A stretch of DNA of 34,480 nt, taken from the IMG/VR virus record IMGVR_UViG_3300028534_000010, positions 1 through 34,480 of that record; one strand, given 5' to 3'. Shown piece after piece: positions 6,057 through 32,685 of the stretch. Both the position numbers and the translations under genes were made by a program. The notes under the pieces were generated by a model. That model saw only the letters and a list, made by a program, of their open reading frames with translations. It did not search any database and had not been told where the DNA came from. Every line of letters begins with the position of its first letter. Within the stretch, counting starts at the first letter, position 1. This DNA comes from a virus.

Positions 6057-6649
6057 GACAAACCAAAATGATAACGGTTTCAAAACTTTGCGATTTGCTA
6101 AACTCCTCAGAGTATGACATAGAAATGCCATCGTCTGGCGTATGGACTAAGAAAAACGTATCAATGAAGATTAAAAATGCAGGAATTCTCCCAGTAAGGA
6201 AAGGGAGAGGAAGGACTGGCAACCAATACAGCACAGATGACATAATAAAGCTGTTTGGTATAGGGGATGAAAAAACAAACATACCAGAGCCAAGAGATAC
6301 GATAAAAGAAGCAGATACTGCACTTGGAGCATGGGGCGAATATAAGAAGAAGATAGAAGAGCGTGTCGCAATGGCACCGAGTGCTAAAGTAGAGGCAGAA
6401 ATAGAAAAGATTATGACAGCGACATACAAGGATGAGCTTGATGTTATCGAAAAATCAAAACTGTTATTGTCGAGAGCAGAGGTAGAAGCTACAAACGGCA
6501 GGATTTTATCTGCGTTAAAACATGAAATTGTGCAGATAGTCGGCAAAATATCAGCAGTTGCACCAGAGCTTGATAGAAAAAAGCTTGTAATGATAAGAGA
6601 CACGATAAACGAAGCACTTGCAAAGGTAGCAGATGAGCTTGGCAAATAG
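6041..6649 (+). CDS. Terminase small subunit (by position)
   Basis: 202 aa with an HTH-like N-terminus. It overlaps TerL by 17 nt and the upstream gene by 16 nt. Confidence 0.5.
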   Translation: MADKIRQTKMITVSKLCDLLNSSEYDIEMPSSGVWTKKNVSMKIKNAGILPVRKGRGRTGNQYSTDDIIKLFGIGDEKTNIPEPRDTIKEADTALGAWGEYKKKIEERVAMAPSAKVEAEIEKIMTATYKDELDVIEKSKLLLSRAEVEATNGRILSALKHEIVQIVGKISAVAPELDRKKLVMIRDTINEALAKVADELGK

Positions 6650-8414
6650 CTACCTGCTAAACTCTGCGGCAGAGATATTAAGACCGCCTGAAAAAATAAA
6701 AGGGTCAGAGTTTGTAAATAAGCATCTCTATGTTCAGACAGGGAAAGTAACGCTGTACCCGTGGCAGGAAGAGTGCTTAGATGTGTGCCTTGATGATGAA
6801 CATGAGGAAGTGATGTTCATGAAGCCGTCAAGGGTTGGGTACACAGAGGTTATAATTGGCGGTGTGATATTGTGGGCTATCGCACAAGACCCAAATAATA
6901 TATTGATAGCACAGCCAACAGACGATGAGGCGTATGGATATGCTGAGGACAATCTTACAAAACTTATTCAGGCAAACAAACTAATAAGTGACGCAATAAC
7001 AGCGACACCGATCATAGGCAAAAAGAAAAAAGAGAGAACGACAAAGAAGCTCTTTAAGGGAAACTATATAGAGGTTGTCGGAGCACATTCACCGAAGAAC
7101 TTCAGGAGGAGGTCTGCAAAATATCTAATAGCCGATGAAATAGGTGGTTGGGATATAGGAGCTGGCAAAGAGGGCGACCAGATAAAGCTGATGAAGCGGA
7201 GGGGTGCCGATTACTATGACATGAAGTTCATAAAGGGCTCTACTCCTACAGTCGAGGGGTGTAGGACTTGGAGTGAATATATAGCAGGCGATCAAAGAAA
7301 CAGGTACTACCACTGCCCTGAGTGTGGAGGTCTGCACAAGTGGGAGCTCAAACAGCTAAAATATGACATAATTGATGGTACGATACCTAAAAACAGCGTA
7401 AAGATGTCATGCTCAAACTGCGGTGCATTGTATGGTCAGGAACTTCAACACGAGCTTGACAAAGGCGGGGAGTGGATAAAAGAAAATCCAAATGCGATAT
7501 CAGTATCGTTTATGATAACTGGATTTATGTCACGGTCTCCTCAGTCCACATGGTGGCATATCGCACAGGCTATAGAGGACGCAAAAAAAGACCCAGAGCG
7601 TCTAATGCAGCCAGTTGTGAACACAATGATAGGTCTGCCATACACAGAGAAGCACAAATCAGAGGTATCAAAGAAATCATTAAGAGCAAAAAAAGAGCAC
7701 TATGAGCACGAAGTACCAGACGGTGCGAATGTACTAATTATGTCAGTAGATACACAAAATGACAGACTAGAATGGATTATAAATGGATATGGAGAGGATT
7801 ACGAAACATGGGCTGTAGACAGAGGTGTCATACACGGAGACCCCGCACAAAAAGAGCCGTGGATAACACTTGAGGATATATTTGACAACAAGAAATACTC
7901 ATCAAGTGACGGTGCAATGTCAATTTATGCGATGGGGATAGACTCTGGTGGTGGCAGGACATCCGATGTATATGGATTCTGTTACCCAAGGTTGCACAAG
8001 AGGATATACGCATTAAAAGGGGCATCACAGATAGATGCAGAGGAAGTATCGAGGAGGACAGTAAGAGATAAAGGCTCACGGTACTATGGAATGCCTTATA
8101 TAAGGGCAGGCGTAAACAGGGTAAAGGATATTGTATTTGTTGGTCTTAAAACGCCTGCTGGAAGATATGCTATCCATTTCCCTAGAAGCAGGAAGTTTGA
8201 TGATAGCTTTTTCGAGCAACTTACAACAGAGTATAAAGACGGTAAAGGCAGGTGGGTGAAGCGTTACGCAGGTGCAAGGAATGAGGGTATAGACTTGTTT
8301 GTGTATGGGCTTGTTACGCTTCAAGCAAGCGGTGCCGATGTGTCAATGGGAAGGTACATGGACGGAAGCACAGACAGTGAAGATGAGTTTATAGAACTTG
8401 ATGCAGGTTATTAA
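6633..8414 (+). CDS. Terminase large subunit, lambda gpA family
   Basis: 593 aa with YPWQEECLD, FMKPSRVGYTE, LIADEIGGW and the zinc ribbon YHCPECGG...CSNCGA typical of gpA-type terminases. Confidence 0.88.
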   Translation: MSLANSYLLNSAAEILRPPEKIKGSEFVNKHLYVQTGKVTLYPWQEECLDVCLDDEHEEVMFMKPSRVGYTEVIIGGVILWAIAQDPNNILIAQPTDDEAYGYAEDNLTKLIQANKLISDAITATPIIGKKKKERTTKKLFKGNYIEVVGAHSPKNFRRRSAKYLIADEIGGWDIGAGKEGDQIKLMKRRGADYYDMKFIKGSTPTVEGCRTWSEYIAGDQRNRYYHCPECGGLHKWELKQLKYDIIDGTIPKNSVKMSCSNCGALYGQELQHELDKGGEWIKENPNAISVSFMITGFMSRSPQSTWWHIAQAIEDAKKDPERLMQPVVNTMIGLPYTEKHKSEVSKKSLRAKKEHYEHEVPDGANVLIMSVDTQNDRLEWIINGYGEDYETWAVDRGVIHGDPAQKEPWITLEDIFDNKKYSSSDGAMSIYAMGIDSGGGRTSDVYGFCYPRLHKRIYALKGASQIDAEEVSRRTVRDKGSRYYGMPYIRAGVNRVKDIVFVGLKTPAGRYAIHFPRSRKFDDSFFEQLTTEYKDGKGRWVKRYAGARNEGIDLFVYGLVTLQASGADVSMGRYMDGSTDSEDEFIELDAGY

Positions 8415-8436: not shown

Positions 8437-8682
8437 ATGGCTACAATAGATACAATGACGGACGAGGAAGTTGAAGAAGCCTTATCCGTAAAGCGTGACC
8501 CAAATAGACAATTGTTAAGACTCTACACGAGAAGAGACGAGATACTTGAAGCAGGAGAAGAATGGGCGAATGGCGATAAGAGAAGAAGAGACGCTGATCT
8601 TAAAACCGTTCAAGACCAGATCGCTATGCTTGAAAACTCTCTATTGCCGTGTATTGAGTTTTGTGAAGTGGAGGTAGAATAA
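8437..8682 (+). CDS. gpW-like head-tail joining protein (by size and position)
   Basis: 81 aa lying between TerL and the portal, as in lambda. A TAATG overlap joins it to the portal start. Confidence 0.45.
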   Translation: MATIDTMTDEEVEEALSVKRDPNRQLLRLYTRRDEILEAGEEWANGDKRRRDADLKTVQDQIAMLENSLLPCIEFCEVEVE

Positions 8683-10016
8683 TGGAAGTTGTAAACGATT
8701 CTGTATATACCTCCGAAGGGTACGAGTATCTGTCTCCACCGGATATTGCAGATTTAGAAAACATAGAAGCAATTCAGGCTACAAGCCAATGGATGGCACA
8801 TACTAATGCATTTGCCGCTGGTGCGATATCTACAAATGCAAACTCCACAATAGGTCGTGGGTTTAAACTACGATCTACAATAAACAGAGACTATCTTGGT
8901 CTCTCGGAAGAAGAGGCTCATCAAAAAAAGCAGGAGATAGAGAGACTGTTCAATATGTGGGCTTCATCTCCAAAAACAGACGCTACAGGTCACACGAATT
9001 TCAAACAGCTGCCTATGTTACTTTATAAGACATCTCTTGTTACAGGTGCATCTATCGCACTGTACCCAGAGACGGATGATGGGTGGTTGCAGGTAAAAAT
9101 ACTAAGCTCAACTCAAATAAACAGAGAAAAGGGGCTTAACGGTATTGAGTTCAAAGACGGAGCACCAGTAGCGTACCACATATACAAAAAACGAAAAGAA
9201 CTATACGAAGATGCAAAATCAGTTAAAATAAAGATGTATAGCGGGCTAAAGAGAAACGTAGTACACTATTTTGACAAAAAGATAGCAGGGCAGATAGACG
9301 GCATACCATATCTTTCAGCAGTGTTTGACACACTTAGGAAAATCAAAGACTATAGCCAAGCAGAGCTTGATGCAGCTATGCTGTCTGCGTTATTTGCAGT
9401 AGGTATAGTAAAAAAGGATGCAGGTGGTGTCTCTCTTAAGATGCCAGACGACAATACAATAAAGTTAAAAAAAGGCAACATGTTTAAACTACCTGCTGGA
9501 TATGAAGTAAGCACGATTGACCCATCTCACCCTAATAGCTCTTACCCAGAAGCGATGAGTGCTTTTATTACAGAGCTATGTATTGGTCTTGACATCCCAA
9601 AGGAAGTGTTCACAAAAGAGTTTAAGGCATCATACTCTGCATCAAGGGGTGCTGTCATAGAGGGTAGAAAGTCATTCAGGGTATCACGTAGTGGCGTAGA
9701 GATACAGTTTTTGTCTGAAACATATAAGAATTTCTTATTATGGTCAGTTTTGAATAACTATCTGGTACTGGATGGGTTTTTAGATGATGAGTTCGCACGA
9801 ATGGCATGGAGTTCGGCAGATTGGATAGGTGATATTGATGAAGAATTAGACCCACTAAAGGCGGCAAATGCTGCACAGAAGAGGGTTGATGGGTACTTCA
9901 CGACAGGGGACTTTGAGTCCAAGCAGATGTATGGGCTTGATTACGATGACAATATAGAGAGAAGAAACTCCGAATTGTCAAAAATAAACACAAAGGAGAT
10001 TGATGAGCAGGGGTAA
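8682..10016 (+). CDS. Portal protein (lambda gpB-type)
   Basis: 444 aa. Synteny follows A-W-B-C, and the start of the downstream protease overlaps it. Confidence 0.8.
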   Translation: MEVVNDSVYTSEGYEYLSPPDIADLENIEAIQATSQWMAHTNAFAAGAISTNANSTIGRGFKLRSTINRDYLGLSEEEAHQKKQEIERLFNMWASSPKTDATGHTNFKQLPMLLYKTSLVTGASIALYPETDDGWLQVKILSSTQINREKGLNGIEFKDGAPVAYHIYKKRKELYEDAKSVKIKMYSGLKRNVVHYFDKKIAGQIDGIPYLSAVFDTLRKIKDYSQAELDAAMLSALFAVGIVKKDAGGVSLKMPDDNTIKLKKGNMFKLPAGYEVSTIDPSHPNSSYPEAMSAFITELCIGLDIPKEVFTKEFKASYSASRGAVIEGRKSFRVSRSGVEIQFLSETYKNFLLWSVLNNYLVLDGFLDDEFARMAWSSADWIGDIDEELDPLKAANAAQKRVDGYFTTGDFESKQMYGLDYDDNIERRNSELSKINTKEIDEQG

Positions 10017-11120: not shown

Positions 11121-12152
11121 ATGAGAGATATTCAATCAGTATGGAAAACAACACCACAGGAGCGTCTGCTTGGCATGGGGTTTTTGGCAAATCTGGCGTT
11201 CCCGCAGATGAAGAGACAAGACACTCCATTTGTTGAGCTGTTCAAGTACGCACAGAACGCAAAAGTTGCAACAGTGGTTCAAGATGGTGCAACTCCAGTA
11301 TTGCAGACGTACGAAACAGGAACGAATCAGGCTATCAAAATGCCTACAACTTCTGACAAGTTTAAGGTGAACACGGCAGAGATTTATCTTGAGCCAGAGT
11401 ATTCTGAATATCCATCAAATATCAAAGATGGTATTAGACTGATAGAGGCAGAACGCAGAAAGCGTGACCAACTGGCACTGGCAAACAGAAGATGGGTAGA
11501 GTCTATGGCTATCGGTTTTGTGTTTGGACACGGAGAGTTCACATATACTCCAGACGGTGGGTCTGCAATCACTATCAACTATGGGCTACTTGCAGAGCTA
11601 CAGTTCGATGTAGGTGCGGCTGACGACACATACTATTGGGGCGGGGCAAACGCAACTCCAGAAAAAGATGTGCAGACTGGAATCGATGCTATGATTGACA
11701 ATGGTGGCGTGCCTTATGCAATCGTAGGGCGACCTGAACTGGTAGAGGAGTTTATTGAGTCATTGCTAGAAAGCAAAAAGTACGACAGCAAAAACGCAGA
11801 GTATGGGACACTTTCACCTGATGCAATGATGGAATTTGTAGGCACAAAGGCAGGCACATTTGCAGGCGTTCAGATCTTCAAGTACAGCGGTGTAATTCCA
11901 GGAACTGGCAAGCTAGTACCAGCGGACAAAATCGCAATCGTAGGAAAGTCTGACGGTAACTCAAGAGTCGTAGGTAAAAACGAAGAGACATTCCCTACAT
12001 CAGCAAGTGGTCTAAGAGTAACAAGATCAGCAGACGGCATGATGTTCGCAGGGTATAGCATCGAAACAGCTAGATATATCGCTGGGTCTACAACTGCACT
12101 GCCAATCATTGGCGACACCAGTTCAGTGGCTACTATCAAAGTCAAGGCGTAA
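11121..12152 (+). CDS. Major capsid protein, lambda gpE-like
   Basis: 343 aa (gpE is 341 aa). It follows the protease/scaffold gene. Segments such as IFKYSGVIPGTGKLVPADKIAIVG parallel gpE VVYSGQYVENGVKKNFLPDNTMVLG. Confidence 0.8.
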   Translation: MRDIQSVWKTTPQERLLGMGFLANLAFPQMKRQDTPFVELFKYAQNAKVATVVQDGATPVLQTYETGTNQAIKMPTTSDKFKVNTAEIYLEPEYSEYPSNIKDGIRLIEAERRKRDQLALANRRWVESMAIGFVFGHGEFTYTPDGGSAITINYGLLAELQFDVGAADDTYYWGGANATPEKDVQTGIDAMIDNGGVPYAIVGRPELVEEFIESLLESKKYDSKNAEYGTLSPDAMMEFVGTKAGTFAGVQIFKYSGVIPGTGKLVPADKIAIVGKSDGNSRVVGKNEETFPTSASGLRVTRSADGMMFAGYSIETARYIAGSTTALPIIGDTSSVATIKVKA

Positions 12153-14338: not shown

Positions 14339-14589
14339 CGGAGTATATCTCTGTCGTCCGCTCTGACGGCAGGCTTGACCCAGTAGATGACAGAGATTTT
14401 ATAGAGGCTACAATAGGAACAGACACAGCGAATCTGTTGTTAGACGCATATTCGCTTTCACGTCACCCAATGGGTGGGTGTGACAGTGTAGTAATTAAAG
14501 AATTTTCGATAGAATATGGTATAGGGTTTTTGCCACTAATGAGGGCAATAAATATGATAGAAGGGAGCATAGATGTCAAGGACAAGTAA
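13913..14589 (+). CDS. gpGT-like frameshift fusion chaperone, join(13913..14323,14323..14589), about 225 aa
   Basis: The -1 frame stays open from the slip site to 14589, and that ORF overlaps the tape measure start at 14573. Confidence 0.7.
14317..14323 (+). promoter_or_regulatory. -1 programmed ribosomal frameshift site GGGAAAG
   Basis: The zero-frame reading is ctG GGA AAG. The -1 frame (GGG AAA G..) is the frame of ORF 14287-14589. The heptamer is identical to the lambda G/GT site. Confidence 0.8.
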
Positions 14590-17500
14590 GATACAGTCTA
14601 TTGAGCTAAAAGTCTATGCAAATACCCGTGAAGTCAAGCGAATGCGGTCTGAATTTAGGGAACTAAAGACAGAAATACGCACGGCAAATGATGTTCAGAC
14701 GAGAATGGCAGCAGCGGCAATACCACAAATGAACAGATATGCATCCGCTACTGCAAGAGCAACAACACAAACAAAAAACCTAACGAATCAAATGGTACGC
14801 CATATTAGACAAGTAGAGTCTCTATTTGTTGCAGGGTATGGTCTATACAAACTATACACTGCAACTCTTGGCGTAGGACATGAGTACAATAAGCTTTTGG
14901 AGAACGAGGTGGCAGGTATGAAGATACTCGCTGTTCAAAATCTTAAAGATACTGACGCAATGGGAAGAAAGCTGACATTGCAGGAAAAATATAATATCGC
15001 ACAGGCAGAATCAATAAAAATGGTTGATTTGGCAAGGAAAATCAACCCAGAGACACCATACAACCTGTCCGACACAATAAAAACATACAAAGCTATATTC
15101 CCACAACTTATAAAATATAAAGCGACACTTGAAGATATTGCAGAAATAACAAAAAAGATGACCATATTAGGCAAGGCTAGAGGTCTTTCTATGGATCAAT
15201 TCATAAAAACAATAGATACTGCATTTAGTGGTCAAATGAAGCAGTCACAGATGCAGATGGCACTAGGAAGCGTAGGCATAACAAACGCAACAATAAAAGA
15301 GTGGCAAAAGAGTGGAACGCTTGTACAAAACGTATTGAAGTCACTTGAGCAGGTTGACTCAAAGATGGCAGGCATCACGATGACATGGGATACAGCAGTA
15401 TCTAATTTTGTAACAGTGTGGCAAAACCTTTGGTCAATAGTGCAGAAGCCGATATTTACTAATATAAAGAAAGATATAGTGTCATTCACGTCACTTTTGA
15501 GTGGGAGCGAAGAGTCCATTGCAGGATGGATATCAGGCATTTCTACATCTATATGGACTGCTGTAAAAGCTTTTGCAGTGTACAAAGTTGGCACACTGTC
15601 TATGCAGAGAGGCAATATGTCATTCGCGGCATCATCTTTGGCATTGCAGAGACAACTATACACAACTGGAAGAGCAGCAGAGTTCACTGGTAGCATGATG
15701 CAAGTTATGAGCTTTAAAGTCAAAGAGCTTGGAGCGGCATTGATTGCAGTCGGCAGAGCAAATCTACCACTACTTGCACTTACGGCAGTGTTTGAGGGGT
15801 GGGAGTATATCGCCAATAGGAACCGTGATGCTCAAGAGAGATTCAACACTGCAATAAACAAAACAACCGAAGAAATAAAGGCAATGACAGCAGCACAAAG
15901 AGCTGTTGCACTAAGAGATATAGAACTAGGGCTAAACAGAGAGATTGATAAATTAAATCATCTAAAACACCTAAAAGACAAAATCATCAAACAAGATGAG
16001 ATAAGAAGAAAAAAAGCAATCATGATTTATGGTGAAGAGAGGGTAGCTAGAGAGTTCAAAGAGAATACGGCAGCACTAACTTCAGCACAGGCAGAGCTAG
16101 ATGCTCAACAAAAAATAGTAGACAAGCTAAAAGAGCAAAAAGCACTATGGGAAGAGACAGACTTATCAATTCAGGGTGCTACATGGTCTGCAAAAGAGAT
16201 GTCAACAGAGCTGAATCAGTCGTCAATATACGCAAGCGGGATATCTGGCGGTGCAAACAATGCAAAAATATCAATCTCATCAGCTGCAAACGAAGCCGCA
16301 AGGCTGGCACAAAATCTCATGAATGCAGTAGCGGCACTCAATGGAGCATTACGAGGGCAGGCGGTACTTAAAGGCGTAATGAATCAGGCACAGGCAACCT
16401 ATGAAGGTCTGGCAGCAAAGATGAACTCTGCGAATGAGCCGCTGTCTAACATGAATTTGTCTGCTTTAGATATGGGCGGTGTAGCAGGTGATAAGCAAAG
16501 ACTGCACTATGCAGACGCTATTGCGAAAACAGAATCTGCAAAGCTTGAGATAATGAAACTGCAACAGCAGGTGTCACTTGATGGTATAAAGGCAGCAACA
16601 GATTACCAAATAGTCCAAATCCAAAACGAAGCACTAGAGAGACAAATCGCAGGTGACAAGCAAGCACAGCACGATGCAGCACTAAGAACAATAGAGGTTG
16701 AACGCCAAGCACTAATAGACAAAGCCTCTATAGATGCACAGTACAAAAACTCAATTCAGTACCAGACTGATTTGAATATGCTGAAACAGAGAGAGCTACA
16801 AGAGCAGCAGAAAATAAACAAAGAGATTGCAAAAGGAGGAGGCGGTTCCAAAAAAGCCTCCGCAGATGCGAAGAAAGCAGCAAAAGAAGCCAAAAAAGAG
16901 GCAGAGAAGTTCACTGGTGCATTTACTTCTCTCATAGACAAGATGCTATCAGGCGATTGGTCTAATCTATTTAAGGACTTTTTTTCATCAATATCTAAGA
17001 CACTAGCAAAGCCCTTCATAGACGACATATCTAAAAAGATGAGCTCTGTACTATCATCAATGATGAGCAGTCTTGGGAGTGGCGGTAGCTTTGTCGCTGC
17101 TATTGCTATACAGATAGGCTCTGCTATGCTTAACTCTCTATTCAATAGCACAGTATCTCAGGCAGAGATAGACGCGGCTAAAGGAAGAGACGATTGGAAT
17201 GACAAGTCACTTGCAAATCTAGGGGCGTTATTTGAGTCTGTAATGTACCCGCAATTGACCGCGACAAACAAGATGAGCAAGTACCTAAAATCTATAGACA
17301 GAAACACGGCAGCGTTTACCAGAGCACTTGTCGGCAAAGCGTCCACAGCAGGGATAGACCTAACAGGCGTGAACCATGTAGATACGCAAACGACTGGGTT
17401 TTTGGGGTTCAGCTCTAAGTCTGTTTCACTTATCGGCACTGGTCTGGCAATGGATCTGATGACGCTTGGCGATGCAATGGATTACACAACAATAAAAGCC

Positions 17501-18640
17501 AAAGCATACACTACAGAGCTTGTTCAAAAATCTTCGTTCTGGGGTCTGTTTAAATCCTCTTCAATACGCGAAACATTCACAAACCTACCAGATGATGTGA
17601 AAAAGAATCTATCAGACAATTTCGCAGATGGATTCTACTCAATACTCGAAGCTGGGATAGCACTCGGATTTGATGCTGACAAGCTGACAGAGCTACTGCA
17701 AAATGCAGAATTTGATCTCGGCAAAATAGATATGACAGAGCTGTCTCAGGACGAAGTTAATAGCAGGCTACAGGCAGCATATAGTGAAGCGTTTAGCGGT
17801 ATAATTGATGATGTAGATGTATTTGATTCTTTGATGGAGCGGTATTCTATATCAACAGAGGATTATCTTGAGACGCTTACAAGAATCGCTGTTGAATTTG
17901 AGCAGGCAACTTATAGCTTTAGTCTGATCGGGAAGAATCTGATAGACCAATACGCTGCCATAGATATAGTATCAGGAGCAGGCGGGCTAGACTCATTCAA
18001 TGACAGCTTTTCCACATTTGTGGAAAATTTCTATACCGACCAAGAAAAGCTTGACATGTCATTCAAATCTCTCTCCTTGACAATGGGCAATATCGGCGTG
18101 GATATGCCAGACTTCCAAGATGCAGAAGCCGCCAAAGAGTGGTATCGCAATCTGATAGAGGGGTGGGATACGTCCACACAAGCATCAAGTGAGGCTCTTG
18201 GGCAGCTGCTTACTTTGTCAGATGGATTTGCTACGTTCACACAGCAGCTAGATGGTCTATCTGATGTACTAGACGAGACGAAACGCAAATCACTAGACTC
18301 TATTAGATCAATAGCTGATGAATGGCTAGGGAGTCTCAGTTACCTGACAAGGCAACAAAAGGCTGATTATGCAACTGGATATTTTGACCTGATAAGAGAG
18401 TATAATGATCCAGAGACTACTATTGATGCAGCAAGGGCAATGGCAGAGCAGGCACTTAAAACAACTGCAACAAAGGACGAGTATAAGCCATATTTCGACG
18501 CACTCATAAAGGCAAAAGAGGCAGAGGTAGAAGATGCCTCTATGCGTGATCTATTGGAGGAGCTGCAAGCTCTTAGGAAAGAGGTGATCGAAGTGAAAAA
18601 CGCACAAATAGACATTAGCACATACGGAGGTGCTGCATGA
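14573..18640 (+). CDS. Tail tape measure protein
   Basis: 1355 aa, A/Q/K/E-rich and coiled-coil in character, directly after G/GT. Confidence 0.9.
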   Translation: MSRTSKIQSIELKVYANTREVKRMRSEFRELKTEIRTANDVQTRMAAAAIPQMNRYASATARATTQTKNLTNQMVRHIRQVESLFVAGYGLYKLYTATLGVGHEYNKLLENEVAGMKILAVQNLKDTDAMGRKLTLQEKYNIAQAESIKMVDLARKINPETPYNLSDTIKTYKAIFPQLIKYKATLEDIAEITKKMTILGKARGLSMDQFIKTIDTAFSGQMKQSQMQMALGSVGITNATIKEWQKSGTLVQNVLKSLEQVDSKMAGITMTWDTAVSNFVTVWQNLWSIVQKPIFTNIKKDIVSFTSLLSGSEESIAGWISGISTSIWTAVKAFAVYKVGTLSMQRGNMSFAASSLALQRQLYTTGRAAEFTGSMMQVMSFKVKELGAALIAVGRANLPLLALTAVFEGWEYIANRNRDAQERFNTAINKTTEEIKAMTAAQRAVALRDIELGLNREIDKLNHLKHLKDKIIKQDEIRRKKAIMIYGEERVAREFKENTAALTSAQAELDAQQKIVDKLKEQKALWEETDLSIQGATWSAKEMSTELNQSSIYASGISGGANNAKISISSAANEAARLAQNLMNAVAALNGALRGQAVLKGVMNQAQATYEGLAAKMNSANEPLSNMNLSALDMGGVAGDKQRLHYADAIAKTESAKLEIMKLQQQVSLDGIKAATDYQIVQIQNEALERQIAGDKQAQHDAALRTIEVERQALIDKASIDAQYKNSIQYQTDLNMLKQRELQEQQKINKEIAKGGGGSKKASADAKKAAKEAKKEAEKFTGAFTSLIDKMLSGDWSNLFKDFFSSISKTLAKPFIDDISKKMSSVLSSMMSSLGSGGSFVAAIAIQIGSAMLNSLFNSTVSQAEIDAAKGRDDWNDKSLANLGALFESVMYPQLTATNKMSKYLKSIDRNTAAFTRALVGKASTAGIDLTGVNHVDTQTTGFLGFSSKSVSLIGTGLAMDLMTLGDAMDYTTIKAKAYTTELVQKSSFWGLFKSSSIRETFTNLPDDVKKNLSDNFADGFYSILEAGIALGFDADKLTELLQNAEFDLGKIDMTELSQDEVNSRLQAAYSEAFSGIIDDVDVFDSLMERYSISTEDYLETLTRIAVEFEQATYSFSLIGKNLIDQYAAIDIVSGAGGLDSFNDSFSTFVENFYTDQEKLDMSFKSLSLTMGNIGVDMPDFQDAEAAKEWYRNLIEGWDTSTQASSEALGQLLTLSDGFATFTQQLDGLSDVLDETKRKSLDSIRSIADEWLGSLSYLTRQQKADYATGYFDLIREYNDPETTIDAARAMAEQALKTTATKDEYKPYFDALIKAKEAEVEDASMRDLLEELQALRKEVIEVKNAQIDISTYGGAA

Positions 18641-23855: not shown

Positions 23856-24000
23856 GTACGTTTATGGAGAAGCAAGAGACCATATCGTGTCTGAGTACGA
23901 CAAAGACAGGACAAAAACAGTGTACGATGGTAGAAGAATAAGGTTAGTAGGACACAGTACGGACAGCGACGGAAACAGGATTATAAAGGTAGAGATATGA
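23827..24000 (+). CDS. Hypothetical 57-aa protein
   Basis: Encodes MTTVVNQYGKYVYGEARDHIVSEYDKDRTKTVYDGRRIRLVGHSTDSDGNRIIKVEI. An ATGA overlap joins it to the amidase start. Confidence 0.45.
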   Translation: MTTVVNQYGKYVYGEARDHIVSEYDKDRTKTVYDGRRIRLVGHSTDSDGNRIIKVEI

Positions 24001-24743
24001 AGTTTGCATTAGTTGTTGGGCACAGAAAGAAATCGCAAGGGGCAGTAGGCTCTGATAACTTATCTGAGTATAAATATTACAAAAACATCTTCATACCTGA
24101 CGTAATGAATATGCTGAAAGTAGAGTCTAAAATGTTCACGAGGGGGGACTATGGAACAAGCTATACAGACAGAATCAGAAAGCTTCATAAAAAGATTGAC
24201 GATTGGGGAGCAGACTATGCAATCTCATTTCACTTTGACGCATCAAGCAACCCAAAGGCACAAGGACACACAGTGCTATACGACAGTGCATCAAATAAAA
24301 GCAAAGCTACCGCCTTAGTGTTTGACTCGTTTTTAGATAAATATATGCACAATCGTGACAGAGGATTGCTAGACAGACACAGAGGTAACGGGTCAGCATT
24401 TTTGAGGTACGGAAATAGTACAAACGTGTTGTTGGAGCTGTATTTTGCATCACATCAGCATCTATACGCAAAAGGTACAAAAGGATACGACAATGCAATA
24501 AAAGCAGTTGTAGATGCTATCCACTCACTAGACAATAAAGATGATGTAAGATTTTACTTTGGAAAAAGGTCTCTAAAGCGATTAAACGCAACAGGAAACA
24601 AAGCATATATAGACACAATGAAGCGAGCGATAAAGATATCAAAAGTTGATATTACGATAAAAAAAGATGGAAGTTTTGCCCCATACCCGAAAGGAGCAGA
24701 TTGGGCAGAGGTGAGCCGTGCTGTTATGAAGTCAATCAAATAG
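23997..24743 (+). CDS. Endolysin, N-acetylmuramoyl-L-alanine amidase (Amidase_3-like)
   Basis: The pattern ALVVGH...SEY...ADYAISFHFDAS...GHTVLY...NVLLELYFASH matches the H/E/H zinc amidase pattern. Confidence 0.75.
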   Translation: MKFALVVGHRKKSQGAVGSDNLSEYKYYKNIFIPDVMNMLKVESKMFTRGDYGTSYTDRIRKLHKKIDDWGADYAISFHFDASSNPKAQGHTVLYDSASNKSKATALVFDSFLDKYMHNRDRGLLDRHRGNGSAFLRYGNSTNVLLELYFASHQHLYAKGTKGYDNAIKAVVDAIHSLDNKDDVRFYFGKRSLKRLNATGNKAYIDTMKRAIKISKVDITIKKDGSFAPYPKGADWAEVSRAVMKSIK

Positions 24744-25732: not shown

Positions 25733-26596
25733 TTAAACCTCATGCTCTTTAAGTTTGTCGTAACGCTCTTTGAAGTCTGCTTCAAAGCACTTCACTGTCT
25801 CGATCATATTATAAATAAACTCTTCGTCTCTCGACACTTCCCTGATAATAAGATCCACTTTATCAGTATCCTGCGACTGCACCAGAAAGTGTGTCATATC
25901 AATGTCAAGTATATACATTTGTACCTGCATTTGAGCGTAGTATCGCTTTACAAGCTCTCCCCGTGTCAGCTCTGCCAGATATGTACTCAAAAATACAGAT
26001 TTGATCTCTATATTTATCTTGTTAAAATCTGAGTCAGTCGTGATCCCGTCTGTTGATGCACCTAGCATGATATCCTTCCCGACTACAAGCCCCTTTGACA
26101 CTACTTTATTGCCTGTCTTTTTCTCGTATAACTCAATAGCTCTTGGCTCAAGCTCATGCCCTAGGTTAGTGGCATCATTTTTAACGCCACTTTCTTTTAT
26201 AATACCATGCTCAAGTAGGAACTTCTCTGCCACTTTCTTATCGACATACGCGTCATAGGTCGGTATCTTTGTTCCTTTGATCGTGAATGGCGTACTGGAT
26301 GCAGTAATCATGCCTATTCTAGCTTTTAGCCATTCGTCAGTACCTTGGTCATGAGTAGCGTCTAAAACCTCTGGAATCTGCTCTTTTCGTAGCTCTTTTA
26401 CAAGCTTTTCTTTTTGCTCTTCTCTGTATTTTTCAATACTCTCCAAAAAGTCTGCTTCAAGTGTACTTTCAAACTCTATGATGTTTCCATCAAGAGTGTG
26501 ATCTTTGTCAAAAACATAGTCGCCCATATTATCGATAATGTACTTTCTGTAGAGACGCTTTCCTCCAGTCTGTTTAGTTGCCTTTATTAGGTTCAT
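25733..26596 (-). CDS. YqaJ-type (lambda Exo-like) recombination exonuclease
   Basis: GTDEWLKARIGMITASS, GHELEPRAIELYEKKTG and GASTDGI...INIEIKS fit the PD-(D/E)XK YqaJ pattern. Confidence 0.85.
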   Translation of the reverse strand: MNLIKATKQTGGKRLYRKYIIDNMGDYVFDKDHTLDGNIIEFESTLEADFLESIEKYREEQKEKLVKELRKEQIPEVLDATHDQGTDEWLKARIGMITASSTPFTIKGTKIPTYDAYVDKKVAEKFLLEHGIIKESGVKNDATNLGHELEPRAIELYEKKTGNKVVSKGLVVGKDIMLGASTDGITTDSDFNKINIEIKSVFLSTYLAELTRGELVKRYYAQMQVQMYILDIDMTHFLVQSQDTDKVDLIIREVSRDEEFIYNMIETVKCFEADFKERYDKLKEHEV

Positions 26597-27206
26597 CTAA
26601 TATCCCTTTTAATTCAAGTCCGTATTCTTTAAGTTTTTCTTTTTTGTCTACATCTACCTCTTGGCTAAACAGTGCTCCGATTTTCTTTTTAGCTTCGGAT
26701 ACGCTGTTTTTGTCTAGCAGGTCAACAGACTCTTTTACTGTCTCCATTTCAGCGATTGTGTCGATAGGCTCTTTTGTCAAGTCCTCTGGTACATTACGGG
26801 TGTCCTCTGGGTCTATATCACTAAGCCCAAGTATCCTGATAGACAGGATTCTACTGATATAGCCGAATTGTTTTCCTCTCTCTATCTCTGCGTCAAGATA
26901 CATCATATTTCCGTTTCTATCCTCTCTAGGTGCTATTGGCATAAGCGAAGCCACAGAAGAAATACTCTCTCCTGACTCTACATGATAGAGTGTTACAACT
27001 ACTGTTTCTGTTCCTAGAGACTCTGAATGCTGGATAGTTGATACAAGTTCAAGCCCGCACTCAGTAAGCGGCTTTTGGATTGTTTTTATTAGATTATCCT
27101 CACTTGCAAATTTCCAGTTACCACCTGCCCCGCCTTTTTGCTTATCAGCAACAAGCACAACTCCTTTTTTCCTGAACTCTGATTTTGCTTTTAGTAGGTT
27201 TATCAT
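26574..27206 (-). CDS. ERF-family single-strand annealing protein (tentative)
   Basis: 210 aa directly upstream of the exonuclease. NWKFASEDNLIKTIQKPLTECGLEL, LYHVESGESI and FGYISRILSIRILGLSDIDPED follow the ERF layout. Confidence 0.55.
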   Translation of the reverse strand: MINLLKAKSEFRKKGVVLVADKQKGGAGGNWKFASEDNLIKTIQKPLTECGLELVSTIQHSESLGTETVVVTLYHVESGESISSVASLMPIAPREDRNGNMMYLDAEIERGKQFGYISRILSIRILGLSDIDPEDTRNVPEDLTKEPIDTIAEMETVKESVDLLDKNSVSEAKKKIGALFSQEVDVDKKEKLKEYGLELKGILDEPNKGN

Positions 27207-27326: not shown

Positions 27327-27403
27327 TGGTGTGGCAAGGCGGATTTGAACCGCTCCTCCATCCCGTTATGAGCGGGACGCTCTACCAATTAAGCTATTGC
27401 CCC
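27327..27403 (-). tRNA. tRNA with anticodon CAT (Met, or Ile2 if lysidine-modified), encoded CCA
   Basis: The reverse complement is GGGGCAA TA GCTT AATTGGTA GAGC G TCCCG CTCATAA CGGGA TGGAGG AGCGG TTCAAAT CCGCC TTGCCAC A CCA, which folds as a cloverleaf. It has a G2-A71 mismatch, an A49-C65 mismatch and a 6-nt variable region. Confidence 0.75.
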
Positions 27404-28801: not shown

Positions 28802-28960
28802 ATGGAAAGTGACGCTATTCATGCGATGCTAAAACATCAAGCACAACTTAAATGCGGTGATCTATGGTCTAACATGAATGAAAAAGAGCAATTAACGGCT
28901 ATGTTAAAAGTGGAAGAAGATTTGCTAAAGGAGTATGATAGTGGCAAAAATAAGAATTAA
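28802..28960 (+). CDS. Possible 52-aa protein
   Basis: Encodes MESDAIHAMLKHQAQLKCGDLWSNMNEKEQLTAMLKVEEDLLKEYDSGKNKN. It overlaps the initiator start by 26 nt and has a weak SD. Confidence 0.35.
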   Translation: MESDAIHAMLKHQAQLKCGDLWSNMNEKEQLTAMLKVEEDLLKEYDSGKNKN

Positions 28961-29609
28961 GAAGCATATCACGCTAAACCTAGAGCTATGCACATCGTAT
29001 GATATTTCCTACCCAGAATGGATACTTTGTGAGCAGATTCAGTTTCTATCCGTAAGAAAAGGATACTGCTATGCAAAGAGAAAAACACTAGCAGAAGCAC
29101 TTAAAATATCAGTACGAGGTCTACAGAAGATGATAGATAGATTAATAGAAAAAGGACTACTAAAAAGACACGAAAATGCAGCTCTTACAGTAACAGAAAA
29201 GTGGCTAAATTCCCAAGAAATTAAAGATTCTAGCCACGAACAAAGTTCACCCCTAGCACGAACAAAGTTCACCCCTAGACACGAACAAAGTTCACCCCCT
29301 ACTATAAAGATGGATAATTTAAGTGTAGATATAAAAGAAGAGCAATACCCAGAACCACTAAAAGAGTGGATAGACTATCGTAAAGAAATTAAGAAGCCAC
29401 TAAAAGAATCATCAATCAAAAGACTTCTTAAAAAGCATGATTTAGATAGTCATTCTTTTGCATTGTCAGTAGACCACTCTATAGAAAATGGGTATCAAGG
29501 GTTATTTGCTCCTAAAACAAATAAAACGTACACAAAACAAGATCAACTCCTAGATGAAATGTTCCCAGACGAAACATCAGGAACAATAGATGTTGAGGTG
29601 ATAACATGA
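28935..29609 (+). CDS. Replication initiator / replisome organiser (wHTH N-terminus)
   Basis: 224 aa. RKTLAEALKISVRGLQKMIDRLIEKGLLKR is wHTH-like, and the C-terminal LKEWIDYRKEIKKPLKESSIKRLLKK is typical of phage replication organisers. The gene contains iterons internally. Confidence 0.55.
   Translation: MIVAKIRIKKHITLNLELCTSYDISYPEWILCEQIQFLSVRKGYCYAKRKTLAEALKISVRGLQKMIDRLIEKGLLKRHENAALTVTEKWLNSQEIKDSSHEQSSPLARTKFTPRHEQSSPPTIKMDNLSVDIKEEQYPEPLKEWIDYRKEIKKPLKESSIKRLLKKHDLDSHSFALSVDHSIENGYQGLFAPKTNKTYTKQDQLLDEMFPDETSGTIDVEVIT
29235..29300. repeat. Three direct iterons cacgaacaaagttcacccct (candidate origin of replication)
   Basis: Copies lie at 29235-29254, 29257-29276 and 29280-29300, spaced 22 and 23 bp apart. 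An AT-rich stretch, actataaagatggataatttaagtgtagatataaaag, follows. Confidence 0.6.
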
Positions 29610-30178
29610 AAGAAATCATAGAGTACATTGGAAGCGTATTAAATATCAAGATAGATAATAGGCTAGTAATAGACGATATAACAACAGAGCTAAAGTCAAT
29701 AGGTGACATCGTTGACTATAAAAACTTCCTCAAAAAAAACATGAATCATATCCATACACAATACATGACAGGGTTTCAAAAATTCATTAAGCTGACAGAA
29801 ATCTATAAGAGACAATTAGCACTTGAGTCAAGCAGCGACAGGATAAGTAATGCAGATGATTTTGCTAAAAAGCTTGCAAGTAAGGTGAAGTCAGTGGCAA
29901 AAGAAATAGAAGAAAATTCATATCTTGACTATGACAATTTTATATCAAGCGGAGAGCCGTACTTTTCTGATTATGAAAGGAAGCAGATAGACAAGATAGG
30001 CGGGCTTCAAACAGCAATAAGGCTACAAAAGAGCGTTAGCGGCACAGATGCACTGGAGGAAAGGCTAAGGTCTCAATCTGTATCTATCGTGATAAGAGAT
30101 GCACTCAAGAAGCCAGACAAGCAGAAGTCACTATCAATGGTGAAAGACGCTGCGAATGCAACGAGGATAGCGAAATGA
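29606..30178 (+). CDS. Hypothetical protein (replication module by position)
   Basis: 190 aa with an ATGA overlap with the initiator gene. Confidence 0.6.
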   Translation: MKEIIEYIGSVLNIKIDNRLVIDDITTELKSIGDIVDYKNFLKKNMNHIHTQYMTGFQKFIKLTEIYKRQLALESSSDRISNADDFAKKLASKVKSVAKEIEENSYLDYDNFISSGEPYFSDYERKQIDKIGGLQTAIRLQKSVSGTDALEERLRSQSVSIVIRDALKKPDKQKSLSMVKDAANATRIAK

Positions 30179-30223: not shown

Positions 30224-30229
30224 TATAAT
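30224..30229 (+). promoter_or_regulatory. Candidate -10 box TATAAT for the PcfJ-like gene
   Basis: ttgTATAATataat lies 34 nt upstream of the ATG at 30263, and an AGGAGG SD follows it. Confidence 0.35.
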
Positions 30230-30262
30230 ATAATACGGTATCTACATAGCTAGGAGGCTAAA

Positions 30263-31603
30263 ATGAAATACACAGAATATGCGAAAGCGTTCAACTGCAA
30301 AGACGATGTGATAGTTTGGATAGATGCGAATCTGCAAAACTATCTGAAAAAGAATGAAGAAAACCAAACAGATATTGAGCATATACTTGACTACCTATGC
30401 TCCGATGCAAGACCAAAGAGAATAGCAAAAATGAGCTATAAAGAAGCTCTGTCAAATGCAGAGAAGTGGTCAAAGTCACTACAGAAAAAAGCATCTGGGA
30501 TAGATGAGGAAGAAGATGATACTGAAACCGTCCTTGATTTTAGAGACGGATTCAAGATAGTTAAGTTGGTCGGCAGGAATGCATATGATAGAGAGGGTAT
30601 GCTTATGCGGCACTGCGTATCGTCATATTACGGTAAAGATACAGAGGTATATTCATTGAGAGACAAAGATAATATGCCGCACTGCACAATAGAGAAAGAC
30701 AAACAGATAAAAGGGAAAGGGAATGGGTCTATAAGCCCAAAGTACATAAAATATGTAGTAGAGTTTCTTGAGCATATTGGCATGGAAGTTAGAGATAACG
30801 AGATGAAAAATCTTGGGTATGTGAATATCGAAAAAGTAAAGAATGATTTCGATTTTATGCCAACATTTAGAAGTAAATATTTCTACAAAGACGATATATT
30901 AAAAGTAAAAAACAAAGACGATATGCGACTGTGGAACATCTTTGGGCTGTTCACAATAAAGAAACATGAGACAAGTTTCAATTTTGACTTATCTCTGTCT
31001 ATAAAAAAACATATTAGCAGAACAAAAGCTAAAGATTATATAGCAGCTAGGGACTACTCAACCGTAGCAGCTCTGGACTCATCAACCGTAGCAGCTAGGA
31101 ACTACTCAACCGTAGCAGCTAGGAACTCATCAACCGTAGCAGCTAGGAACTCATCAACCGTAGCAGCTAGGAGCTACTCAACCGTAGCAGCTCTGGACTC
31201 ATCAACCGTAGCAGCTAGGAACTACTCAACCGTAGCAGCTCTGGACTCATCAACCGTAGCAGCTCTGGACTACTCAACCGTAGCAGCTAGGGACTACTCA
31301 ACCGTAGCAGCTAGGAACTACTCAACCGTAGCAGCTCTGGACTCATCAACCGTAGCAGCTAGGAACTCATCAACCGTAGCAGCTAGGAACTACTCAACCG
31401 TAGCAGGTGGGAAAGATTGCGTAATAGTAGCAAGAGCGAACTCAAAAGCTAAGGGATTGATGCGGTCAGTGATAACACTATGTGAGACTAATAATTTCGG
31501 TGAAATTACAAACTTTGTATCATTCCAAATCGATGGTGATAAATACAAAGAAGATACATTTTATCACATCAAAAATGGTAAGATTACAGAATTTAAAGGA
31601 TAG
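30263..31603 (+). CDS. PcfJ-like domain protein with a central 8-residue tandem-repeat array
   Basis: 446 aa. REGMLMRHCVSSYYGKDTEVYSLRDKDNMPHCTIE fits the PcfJ-like signature. Residues about 258-381 are STVAA(R/L)(N/D/S)(Y/S) repeated. Confidence 0.6.
   Translation: MKYTEYAKAFNCKDDVIVWIDANLQNYLKKNEENQTDIEHILDYLCSDARPKRIAKMSYKEALSNAEKWSKSLQKKASGIDEEEDDTETVLDFRDGFKIVKLVGRNAYDREGMLMRHCVSSYYGKDTEVYSLRDKDNMPHCTIEKDKQIKGKGNGSISPKYIKYVVEFLEHIGMEVRDNEMKNLGYVNIEKVKNDFDFMPTFRSKYFYKDDILKVKNKDDMRLWNIFGLFTIKKHETSFNFDLSLSIKKHISRTKAKDYIAARDYSTVAALDSSTVAARNYSTVAARNSSTVAARNSSTVAARSYSTVAALDSSTVAARNYSTVAALDSSTVAALDYSTVAARDYSTVAARNYSTVAALDSSTVAARNSSTVAARNYSTVAGGKDCVIVARANSKAKGLMRSVITLCETNNFGEITNFVSFQIDGDKYKEDTFYHIKNGKITEFKG
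31034..31406 (+). repeat. 24-bp in-frame tandem repeat: 14 full units, one degenerate leading unit and one truncated terminal unit
   Basis: The unit is tcaaccgtagcagct plus 9 variable nt. Full units start at 31058 and recur every 24 bp up to 31370. The 15-nt core is identical in all of them. Confidence 0.95.
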
Positions 31604-31606
31604 TAG

Positions 31607-31921
31607 ATGATAGAGGTAAAAACACACAGAAATTCTGGATTCGGTATGGCTAAAATCGCTATAAATATTGACAGTATATCAACCGTAATGAATAAAGGAA
31701 TTGTTGTGATTGTGCTAAATGACGCAACTTCAATCATGCTAGATGAAAGCCATAAAAATTGTGATATTTTGTCTGCAATAAAAACAGCAAGGAAGGAAAG
31801 ATGCTCACAAACAAAAGAAACAATCAGAGCACTAAAAGAACTAGACACGCTAACGCCAATGGCATCAAAGGCAGCGGTGAACGAACTTATCGCAAAATTG
31901 GAGGCACAAAGTGAAACCTAA
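31607..31921 (+). CDS. Hypothetical protein
   Basis: 104 aa, starting 3 nt after the upstream stop. Confidence 0.55.
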   Translation: MIEVKTHRNSGFGMAKIAINIDSISTVMNKGIVVIVLNDATSIMLDESHKNCDILSAIKTARKERCSQTKETIRALKELDTLTPMASKAAVNELIAKLEAQSET

Positions 31922-32042: not shown

Positions 32043-32251
32043 AATGGAAAAACACAGAAATAGACGGATACCCAAAAGATGATGGGCTAGTATTCGTATC
32101 TAATGGAAAATATATAGATGCCGCTTGTTGGAACTCTTATCACGAGTGCTGGGATGATGTATCGTGTGATGACTACTATTTAGAAAAAGAAGCATTTAAG
32201 TTTTGGCTTGCACCACCACCACTGACAGATATTGGAAAGGATAAAGAATAA
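32039..32251 (+). CDS. DUF551-like phage protein (tentative)
   Basis: 70 aa with W...P...VFV...W...FWLAPPPL, the layout typical of DUF551. Confidence 0.45.
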   Translation: MKWKNTEIDGYPKDDGLVFVSNGKYIDAACWNSYHECWDDVSCDDYYLEKEAFKFWLAPPPLTDIGKDKE

Positions 32252-32685
32252 TGCTGCTAAAAATAAATGGAGTCGTTAGGCTAACAAGAGACGTAGAAAT
32301 TCGCTACACTCAATCAGGAAGTGCAATAGCCAGCTTTGGCGTTGCATCAAGCAAAAAATACAAAACACAATCAGGCGAACAAAAAGAAGAGACAACTTTT
32401 GTCGATTGTACTGCATTTGGCAGATTAGCTGAAATCTGCAATCAGTACCTGCACAAAGGAAGCAAAATCTACATAGTCGGTGAGCTAAAACTTGACCAGT
32501 GGACTGCACAGGACGGCACGAAGAGATCAAAGCACTCTATAACAATAGAGTCAATGGAAATGTTAGATGGGAATAGTGGCGGCAATGAAGCAACAGTGAA
32601 GCAAAATCAACAGAACAATACGGATGCACAAAACGCTACTCCACAGATACCAGAAATTGACATAGATGATGAAATTCCATTCTAA
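32251..32685 (+). CDS. ssb: Single-stranded DNA-binding protein
   Basis: The OB-fold core is GVVRLTRDVEIRYTQSGSAIASFGVA...TTFVDCTAFGRLAEICNQYLHKGSKIYIVGELKLDQW, and the acidic tail is IDDEIPF. Confidence 0.95.
   Translation: MLLKINGVVRLTRDVEIRYTQSGSAIASFGVASSKKYKTQSGEQKEETTFVDCTAFGRLAEICNQYLHKGSKIYIVGELKLDQWTAQDGTKRSKHSITIESMEMLDGNSGGNEATVKQNQQNNTDAQNATPQIPEIDIDDEIPF

Follow-up and report, generated by a model that had tools for sequence, protein, structure and literature searches.

Results

An early phage gene carries an in-frame 24-nt array

IMG/VR record IMGVR_UViG_3300028534_000010 is a viral sequence of 34,480 nt, which we analyzed over its whole length and refer to here as the window. 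It represents all, or a large part, of a siphophage genome, and beside its replication and recombination genes it carries a 446-aa open reading frame (ORF), here called the array gene, in which a 24-nt unit is repeated head to tail and in frame. The encoded protein consists of a PcfJ-like head, a cap helix, an array of octapeptides and a C-terminal β domain (Table 1). An earlier reading of the sequence, the original prediction, had described about 15 perfect cassettes with combinatorial variation in three codons, preceded by a degenerate lead unit and followed by a truncated end unit, and both of these end units were located. Tandem Repeats Finder reported 15.5 copies of a 24-nt period at 31041-31413. 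There are 14 full units with an invariant 15-nt core, TCAACCGTAGCAGCT, but the word ‘perfect’ holds for the core alone, and whole units match at 86%. The core occurs in 14 exact copies and one copy with a single mismatch, and nowhere else in the window (0.06 copies expected from shuffles).

The 9-nt block that follows each core does occur in six versions, as had been claimed: LDS and RNY (four units each), RNS (three), RSY, LDY and RDY. Their codons are not freely combined, however: D follows L in all five units that have L, and N is the usual partner of R (Fisher p = 0.003). Two cassettes dominate the array, CTGGACTCA and AGGAACTAC (LDS and RNY), accompanied by a few derived forms, in keeping with the proposal that a few cassette types have been reshuffled rather than that a repeat is decaying.

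Relatives share one architecture and differ in unit number

A large protein collection yielded 183 relatives of the array protein, all metagenomic. An identical protein, P0001, is present in a public protein collection; no near-identical relative of the window gene was found in the protein collection or in 50,697 phage records, and a nucleotide search of those records with the array gene gave no match. Full-length relatives have a single architecture, comprising a head of ~225–250 aa, an array that begins at about residue 255–265 and a tail of ~55–65 aa, and this order of head, array and tail is conserved in many of the 183. Units are eight residues long in some genes and nine in others, and within a gene they are nearly uniform, with a sequence particular to that gene (STVAARNY, SKLAGGDN, NEVAMDNY, AKVSAGNY or SQLAASGDY, for example). 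The suggested search for 8-mer arrays on PcfJ-like domains thus returned more than 100 metagenomic relatives with arrays of 8- or 9-residue units. The 109 arrays with at least six units range from 6 to 27 units (median 13), one further locus has 33, and some genes have only 2–4.

Unit number differs even between genes whose heads are identical. P0025 and P0041 have heads that are 100% identical over 240 aa, yet the proteins are 485 and 437 aa long and six units apart, and P0083 and P0107, again with 100% identical heads, have arrays of 9 and 18.6 units, a difference put at 8–9 units. In P0003 and P0012 the DNA flanks are 92–95% identical and the arrays contain 9 and 4 units, whereas P0078 and P0091 (heads 98.8% identical) have arrays of similar length that differ in their variable residues. 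The original prediction would have been refuted by homologues with a fixed-length domain whose units show ordinary sequence divergence; the comparison favors it, since the homologues carry anything from 2 to 33 units, and these are homogenized within each gene.

Very fast change in the number and order of units, both between such near-identical genes and between the sibling phages described below, is what one would see at a contingency locus, where repeat number switches a gene on and off or makes antigenic variants of an exposed protein. An on/off switch, which the original prediction had entertained, is excluded because 24 nt is a whole number of codons, so that no change in copy number shifts the frame. 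The array also lies inside the gene and not in a promoter, inspection by eye found no signal peptide in the array protein, and the gene sits in the replication module and not among the virion genes, all of which leaves a contingency locus very unlikely.

Two further observations concern repeats and relatives in the matched records. In L016, L028 and L033 (~6001-7400), tblastn matches cover nearly the full query, but the ORF at the start of the match is broken after 13–86 codons, and in L016 the C-terminal domain lies in a second, overlapping ORF (6233-7120); these breaks could reflect a frameshift, a sequencing error or a recoded stop codon. About 20 TQQPDNSG octapeptides in the ParB-family partition protein of Citrobacter braakii plasmid pF217-2 (L103, 2508-3803) were set aside as a P/Q-rich linker, probably disordered and of another repeat type.

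The array is predicted to form a β-solenoid

AlphaFold2 (AF2), given a 60-sequence alignment, returned a model with a mean pLDDT (predicted local distance difference test) of 90, and of 91–98 across the array. In this model, four-residue strands (T-V-A-A) alternate strictly with four-residue turns, (R/L)(N/D/S)(Y/S)S, and a small β domain follows. A second AF2 model, covering residues 245-446 (the array and the C-terminal domain), agrees with the first and has a predicted TM-score (pTM) of 0.82. We concluded from these models that the array is probably a β-solenoid of short rungs. The models place the variable residues of each unit in the turns with confidence, and we infer that these residues are exposed. 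Together with the differing unit numbers of the relatives, the prediction agrees with the copy-number-variable solenoid that had been one of the options proposed. The suggested structure check gave a divided answer, in that AF2 built a confident solenoid but Foldseek searches of the PDB, with the full model and with the array plus C-terminal domain, gave no significant match to a solved structure. The weak PDB matches were all β-helices, among them autotransporter passengers, pectate lyases, pentapeptide-repeat proteins and the C-terminal domain of CAP.

Octapeptide periods are known from the β-helix of T4 gp5 and from ice-nucleation proteins. The statement that an eight-residue period fits no repeat class did not hold up, as the family sequence profile touches the head of UspA1, a left-handed β-roll (E = 1e-5), and weakly the grass ice-binding β-roll (LbR_Ice_bind); the Pfam grass antifreeze β-roll is matched by 7 of 60 members, and the family also touches Gp5 repeats. 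This last likeness raises the alternative that the protein forms a trimeric, triple-stranded β-helix like that of gp5, serving as a needle or fiber in the virion or an injection apparatus. The eight-residue period is that of T4 gp5; of the Pfam families for the gp5 C-terminal β-helix (PF22178 / PF06715), Gp5_trimer_C scores 24.7 bits against a cut-off of 30.9, and Gp5_C or DUF2345 is found in 5–12 of the 60 relatives. Every such match of the array protein itself falls below the Pfam cut-off, however; the gene is surrounded by recombination and replication genes at a long distance from the tail module and has no lysozyme, OB-fold or baseplate partner, and the monomer model of the array and C-terminal domain is already confident. 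We therefore regard a gp5-like trimer as quite improbable. Across the whole protein, Pfam gave three sub-threshold matches, to PcfJ, Bflower_2 and Gp5_trimer_C. The second of these, the 5-fold β-flower (PF21785), was rejected at 30.2 bits against a cut-off of 38, with 1 of 60 relatives matching.

At its N-terminal end the array is capped by a predicted strand and helix. The cap motif xFDLPxLIKASIEFL also precedes the arrays of DUF7666 proteins when these are compared by eye, which may reflect homology of the caps, with very weak support from hhalign. At the other end, the conserved β domain is shared with proteins of the DUF7666/bbp36 type and with stand-alone small phage proteins of 55–125 aa. 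The profile of alignment A2 matches the window ORF at E = 1.5e-27, and phrog_27197 matches residues 365-445. A word-indexed search with the C-terminal 77 aa alone gave no candidates, whereas a profile built from 30 domains recovered 126 stand-alone or other relatives.

Units differ at amino acid-changing sites on a homogenized background

DNA was available for 22 arrays, in which we compared sites between units. Codons for the constant residues are almost always identical across units, synonymous sites included, and the differences between units are nearly all amino acid-changing and fall in the same two or three codons and in the second codon after the conserved S/N/A. In the variable codons as a whole, 114 of 222 columns are polymorphic, compared to 14 of 89 (16%) at four-fold sites of invariant codons (odds ratio 5.7, p = 3e-9). 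Within the variable codons themselves, ~71% of columns at first and second positions are polymorphic but only 9 of 74 (12%) at third positions. Because a mutational hotspot or lax constraint would not spare the third positions, this pattern points to selection for amino acid diversity on a strongly homogenized background. In the variable columns of the 8- and 9-residue arrays, Y and D each account for 17% of residues, N for 14%, K for 10% and S for 9%, and the constant columns consist of S, A and G. A DNA-mimic role, as for pentapeptide-repeat proteins, was considered, many of the arrays being acidic; it was judged unlikely because the window array has more Arg (10 with the lead unit) than Asp (7).

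The perfect conservation of the core at synonymous sites within the array could also mean that the repeat has its role at the level of the nucleic acid, for instance as iterons, as an array bound by a protein or as a structured RNA, and that its reading frame is incidental, and selection on the nucleic acid itself had been suggested at the outset. Across lineages, however, the peptide pattern (small residue, x, hydrophobic, A/S/G...) is kept in quite different codons, and the array always lies in frame between the same two protein domains. The predicted RNA fold of the array is no better than that of shuffles (z = -0.64), there is no match in Rfam, and the likely origin iterons are elsewhere in the window, at 29230-29298. 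Selection on the nucleic acid is thus not borne out, and a DNA or RNA element is extremely improbable.

We also considered whether the array is the target of a diversity-generating retroelement (DGR) and rejected this candidate: the window contains no second copy of the core, and the differences between units are AG/CT, A/G and AC/CA and not adenine-specific. No reverse transcriptase was found among those window ORFs, a part of the total, that were scanned with PHROGs.

The array resembles variable region 2 of Bordetella phages

When deposited phage genomes were searched with protein against DNA, the array matched ‘variable region 2; VR2’ of the Bordetella phages BMP-1 and BIP-1. In BPP-1, VR2 lies in bbp36, four genes downstream of cI. 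According to the passages on VR2 in PMC2884959, which refer to Liu et al. 2004, the 24-bp element comprises a 19-bp repeat and one of three 5-bp spacers, and those passages put it at 9–20 repeats depending on the isolate. We found that the array of Bbp36 encodes GTATAG followed by YR, ES or NY, that its head is a DUF7666 domain (41.7 bits, cut-off 27) and that the alignment of Bbp36 with P0053, a member of the family, extends as far as the C-terminus (E = 9e-11). The flanks of bbp36 are 100% identical in BPP-1, BMP-1 and BIP-1, but VR2 is 330, 498 and 474 bp long, respectively, and the order of YR, ES and NY units differs strongly among the three phages.

Like the window array, then, VR2 is made of in-frame 24-bp units with a constant core and a few alternative short blocks, its gene encodes a homologous C-terminal domain, and bbp36 is an early gene just downstream of the repressor. 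Unit number and order vary between sibling phages in VR2, and in the window family between relatives such as the P0025/P0041, P0083/P0107 and P0003/P0012 pairs. The two arrays differ in detail: VR2 joins a 19-nt core to TATCG, GAATC or AATTA, giving two variable residues per unit, and is GC-rich, whereas the window array joins a 15-nt core to a 9-nt block in six versions, giving three. They also differ in the head, which in the window protein is PcfJ-like and not DUF7666; hhalign finds no similarity between the two heads, and the array protein has no match to DUF7666 (PF24703) at E ≤ 1. The window array is a VR2-type module on a different, PcfJ-like head.

Other DUF7666 proteins of phages and plasmids (such as WP_013385856 of Paenibacillus pSC2 and BFVD model A0A8S5MQ87) have the same cap helix, an 8- or 9-residue array and the same C-terminal domain behind an N-terminal head that differs from that of the window protein, and our model of the array and tail superposes on models of DUF7666 phage proteins with a root-mean-square deviation of 1.1–2.1 Å. 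The Paenibacillus plasmid, a finished sequence, thus also has the module, with a DUF7666 head and 9-residue units. A protein with the reverse order was seen in Mycobacterium phage Squirty, whose gp51 (L100, 2378-3448) has 8-residue repeats (GSARVEAR, GSAHVEAW, DSAHVVAR) at the N-terminus and its DUF7666 domain at the C-terminus, as well as an ALTTAQ repeat according to Pfam.

PcfJ-like heads are joined to several repeat scaffolds

The PcfJ-like signature that had been noticed in the N-terminal half of the protein misses the Pfam gathering cut-off by 0.6 bit (PF14284, residues 75-161, 24.4 bits against 25, E = 2.7e-5), but it is backed by the relatives, of which 56 of 60 match PcfJ at E < 0.01 (best 1.2e-7), and by Foldseek, which aligns the head with PcfJ-like proteins among predicted viral structures at probability 1.0 and E-values down to 1e-9. 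Alignment A1 shows invariant head residues at E39, D43, W69, E111-G112, M115, H117-C118, S131-L132-R133-D134, P139-H140 and G151/G153-N154, so that the head carries an invariant cluster of E/D, H-C and H. Weak matches of the head to ESCO1/MYST acetyltransferases (TM-scores 0.27–0.39) were discounted as evidence. A search of the literature on PcfJ function, PF14284 and DUF7666 found nothing useful.

An exhaustive search with the head alone returned 1,970 cluster representatives, 731 of them at E ≤ 1e-10. Among the best 150 of the 1,970, ~40 have 8- or 9-residue arrays, ~20 have arrays of 19–22-residue leucine-rich repeat (LRR) type, one has ankyrin repeats and 55 are short and head-only. We considered whether head-only relatives have the array module split off into a neighboring gene, and rejected this. 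In loci taken from collections of viruses and genomes, closely paralogous heads carry near-perfect LRR-type arrays, with units of 20–21 residues in up to 18 copies (L021, L064, L090, L091, L026 and L058); L021 (5980-7782) has 18 near-perfect copies of GGYLDLRNTAITSLPDNMSV, and L064 (5830-7389) has NQLTSLQGAPQTVGGNFYC units. In these LRR arrays too, synonymous sites are frozen, and the differences fall at the x of xLxLxx, the ligand-facing positions of LRR proteins, with the same Y/S/D/N/R/G alphabet. Larger PcfJ-like proteins include one of 958 aa (L077, 5029-7902) with a long PPEVLxKLSxD array that is HEAT- or LRV-like, and one of 1,488 aa (L066, 5695-10158) with apparently several head-like segments and ankyrin repeats at its end. 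PcfJ-like domains also occur upstream of DGR variable regions in bacteria of the candidate phyla radiation, according to a DGR survey (PMC5758913).

The array gene lies among replication and recombination genes

The window encodes the structural and lysis proteins of a siphophage and, further on, a leftward recombination module, a set of small regulator genes between this module and an O-like replication initiator, and then the array gene (Table 1). The description of a PcfJ-like early gene among replication genes fits this arrangement, as the gene adjoins both replication and recombination genes, and its product is an early, non-structural protein and the phage a siphophage of the temperate type. 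The gene had been said to have its own TATAAT and AGGAGG. Both motifs are present, TATAAT at 30224-30229 and again at 30229-30234, but a promoter of its own is unsupported: a consensus scan upstream of the gene found no promoter and no adequate -35 element, and the region has no more promoter-like sites than shuffled sequence. An NCBIfam search with the array protein gave no match. Within the O-like initiator gene, three head-to-tail copies of a 23-nt unit, CTAGACACGAACAAAGTTCACCC (95% matches, 29230-29298), are probably origin iterons, as in lambda O.

Table 1. Features of the array gene and of the surrounding window.
Feature	Positions	Strand	Basis or remark
Array gene, 446-aa ORF	30263-31603	+	ORF list; PcfJ-like head, cap helix, octapeptide array, C-terminal domain
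N-terminal PcfJ-like head, residues ~1-226	30263-30940	+	Pfam, relatives, Foldseek
Strand and helix capping the N-terminal end of the array, residues ~228-257, FNFDLSLSIKKHISRTKAK	30944-31033	+	AF2 helix 243-255
Degenerate first unit, DYIAARDY	31034-31057	+	In-frame unit table
14 full 24-nt units	31058-31393	+	15-nt core TCAACCGTAGCAGCT (S-T-V-A-A) and 9-nt variable block
Last, modified unit, STVAGGKD	31394-31417	+	Keeps 13 nt of core; leads into cap strands
C-terminal β domain, residues ~382-445	31406-31600	+	Conserved; also in DUF7666/bbp36-type and stand-alone small phage proteins
AGGAGG ribosome-binding site	30252-30257	+	Read from sequence; 5 nt upstream of ATG
Large terminase	6633-8414		
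Portal	8682-10016		
Major head protein	11121-12152		
Tape measure	14573-18640		
Endolysin	23997-24743		
RecE-like exonuclease	25733-26596		Leftward recombination module
Erf-like annealing protein	26574-27206		Leftward recombination module
tRNA-Met (CAT) gene	27327-27403	-	ARAGORN and Rfam; between Erf-like gene and regulator genes
O-like replication initiator	28935-29609		
190-aa gene upstream of array gene	29606-30178		No PHROG or PADLOC family matched
104-aa gene downstream of array gene	31607-31921		No PHROG or PADLOC family matched
Single-stranded DNA-binding protein (SSB)	32251-32685		

Discussion

A proposed shuffled and selected binding scaffold

Arrays of this kind have been known since 2004, when VR2 was described; this analysis adds how broad the family is, a prediction of its fold, a signature of selection and the exchange of the array with LRR, ankyrin and HEAT-like scaffolds. 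We propose that the window array is a protein-coding minisatellite whose product would be a β-solenoid of 15–16 octapeptide rungs, joining the PcfJ-like head to the conserved C-terminal cap domain. In each rung, the constant S-T-V-A-A would supply the strand and the packing of the core, and the next three residues, (R/L)(N/D/S)(Y/S), the turn. Slippage or unequal recombination between the identical 15-nt cores would keep the core homogeneous, synonymous sites included, and would at the same time change unit number and reshuffle the small set of unit types. We infer this mechanism because identical cores are a substrate for slippage and unequal recombination, from which homogenization, copy-number change and re-ordering would follow together. 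Selection, in turn, may keep or promote amino acid diversity at the three turn positions, so that the turn residues, stacked as a ladder, would present a rapidly evolving surface for binding. Through it the head would recognize its specific target, whether this is a host factor or one from a rival element. The head would then be a constant effector and the array its exchangeable, fast-evolving specificity module. Taken as a whole, this reading of the array as a recombination-shuffled, positively selected binding scaffold of the VR2 type is one that we favor, with moderate confidence.

Several points weigh against it. No family member is known to have a partner, a phenotype or a biochemical activity, the PADLOC defense-system models have no match to the array protein, and a search for a conserved neighboring gene in 20 loci of relatives found none. 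The passages on VR2 in PMC2884959 describe its role as unknown, without a link to tropism, and bbp36 as non-essential. The AF2 models are of monomers, and the site counts behind the case for selection compare units within arrays, which makes them open to distortion by biased gene conversion. We found no super-period of two or three units among the unit variants, and the aperiodic order of unit types is one that a neutral spacer too would show. Relatives of ~225–240 aa that consist of the head only exist, from which it follows that the head can work without the array. Finally, unit count and order in the window come from a metagenome assembly, and ten related contigs end inside the array (L011, L014, L015, L018, L022, L023, L025, L085, L086 and L088); short-read assemblies therefore break there, and metagenomic repeat counts are lower bounds or uncertain.

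This last point could be taken further, to the view that assembly has falsely produced the array, or the number and order of its units. Besides the breaks, the array contains exact internal repeats of up to 67 nt. The same architecture, however, is found in more than 100 independent assemblies, in the Sanger-sequenced Bordetella phages and in one finished plasmid, and k-mers of at least 77 nt are all unique in the region. Because the architecture recurs independently and these k-mers are unique, the existence of the array is safe and doubt is limited to its exact count and order; an artefact is highly unlikely.

Several of the other points bear on the alternative of a passive role as spacer or stalk, with the array a rigid solenoid of adjustable length that only sets the distance from the head to the C-terminal domain and whose turn residues vary because they are unconstrained. 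A range of 2–33 units, an order of unit types without periodicity, the head-only forms and a dispensable bbp36 would all suit a spacer. Unconstrained codons, on the other hand, should vary equally at third positions and should not exceed the four-fold sites in the rest of the unit, whereas the ~71% of polymorphic columns at first and second positions contrasts with 12% at third positions and 16% at four-fold sites of the core, and the same Y/D/N/S-rich variation recurs at the ligand-facing positions of the paralogous LRR arrays. On balance we think a neutral spacer unlikely. If the array did prove to be one, the family would still offer phage genetics a clean example of concerted evolution.

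VR2 of BPP-1 has been unexplained since 2004, and the array with its C-terminal module is now seen to be widespread, in more than 100 arrays, on at least two unrelated heads, and in sister proteins to be interchangeable with LRR, ankyrin and HEAT-like arrays. With a binding scaffold as the preferred reading, this leads to the testable hypothesis that the shuffling of repeats may give phages a way to diversify proteins that bind inside the cell, with no reverse transcriptase involved. If true, it would open a new arena of the phage–host arms race and offer a compact, naturally modular β-solenoid scaffold for protein engineering. A bolder version, which we raise as speculation and would not expect to hold in full, is that phage protein hypervariability has a second, DGR-independent route, in which a cassette-coded scaffold (an 8- or 9-residue β-solenoid or, in paralogues, an LRR) is re-dealt by recombination between identical cores, and the choice of Y/D/N/S/R residues on the rungs sets the specificity of the attached head for a host or defense target. 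Such a route would amount to a natural, fast, programmable binder, similar to transcription activator-like (TAL) effectors or variable lymphocyte receptors (VLRs).

Comparison with known systems

Beyond VR2, a comparable phage array has been described in gp54 of mycobacteriophage Tweety, a dispensable gene with an array of AAxx tetrapeptides that have invariant positions and a few alternatives elsewhere, whose authors argued for selection for variation, likened it to VR2 and considered the region likely unstructured (PMC2884959). The units of Tweety gp54 are four residues long, versus eight in the window array, and the likeness is one of description. In their predicted structure, the rungs of the window array resemble those of the YadA/UspA1 head, grass ice-binding proteins, ice-nucleation proteins and T4 gp5, all of which use short S/T/A/G-rich repeats as parallel β rungs. 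Unlike these β-roll proteins, the window protein has no autotransporter, ice-binding or baseplate context, and its units are far more uniform and have hypervariable turns.

Other parallels are with systems that keep a scaffold and vary a few positions on it. TAL repeats, found in bacterial type III effectors, are α-helical units of 34 aa with a known code for DNA bases. Like the window array, TAL effectors combine units that are nearly identical in DNA, variation in two or three residues and reshuffling by recombination; unlike in TAL effectors, nothing in the window array shows a code or a nucleic acid target. Lamprey VLRs, the LRRs of plant nucleotide-binding LRR (NLR) proteins and DGR targets all present diversity at the ligand-facing positions of a constant scaffold, as we propose for the array, and the resemblance extends to the paralogues of the window head that use LRR arrays and to the PcfJ-like heads that precede DGR variable regions. 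What sets the window array apart from VLRs and DGRs is that its diversity would come from the shuffling of repeat units, with neither a dedicated recombinase-driven assembly of cassettes nor a reverse transcriptase.

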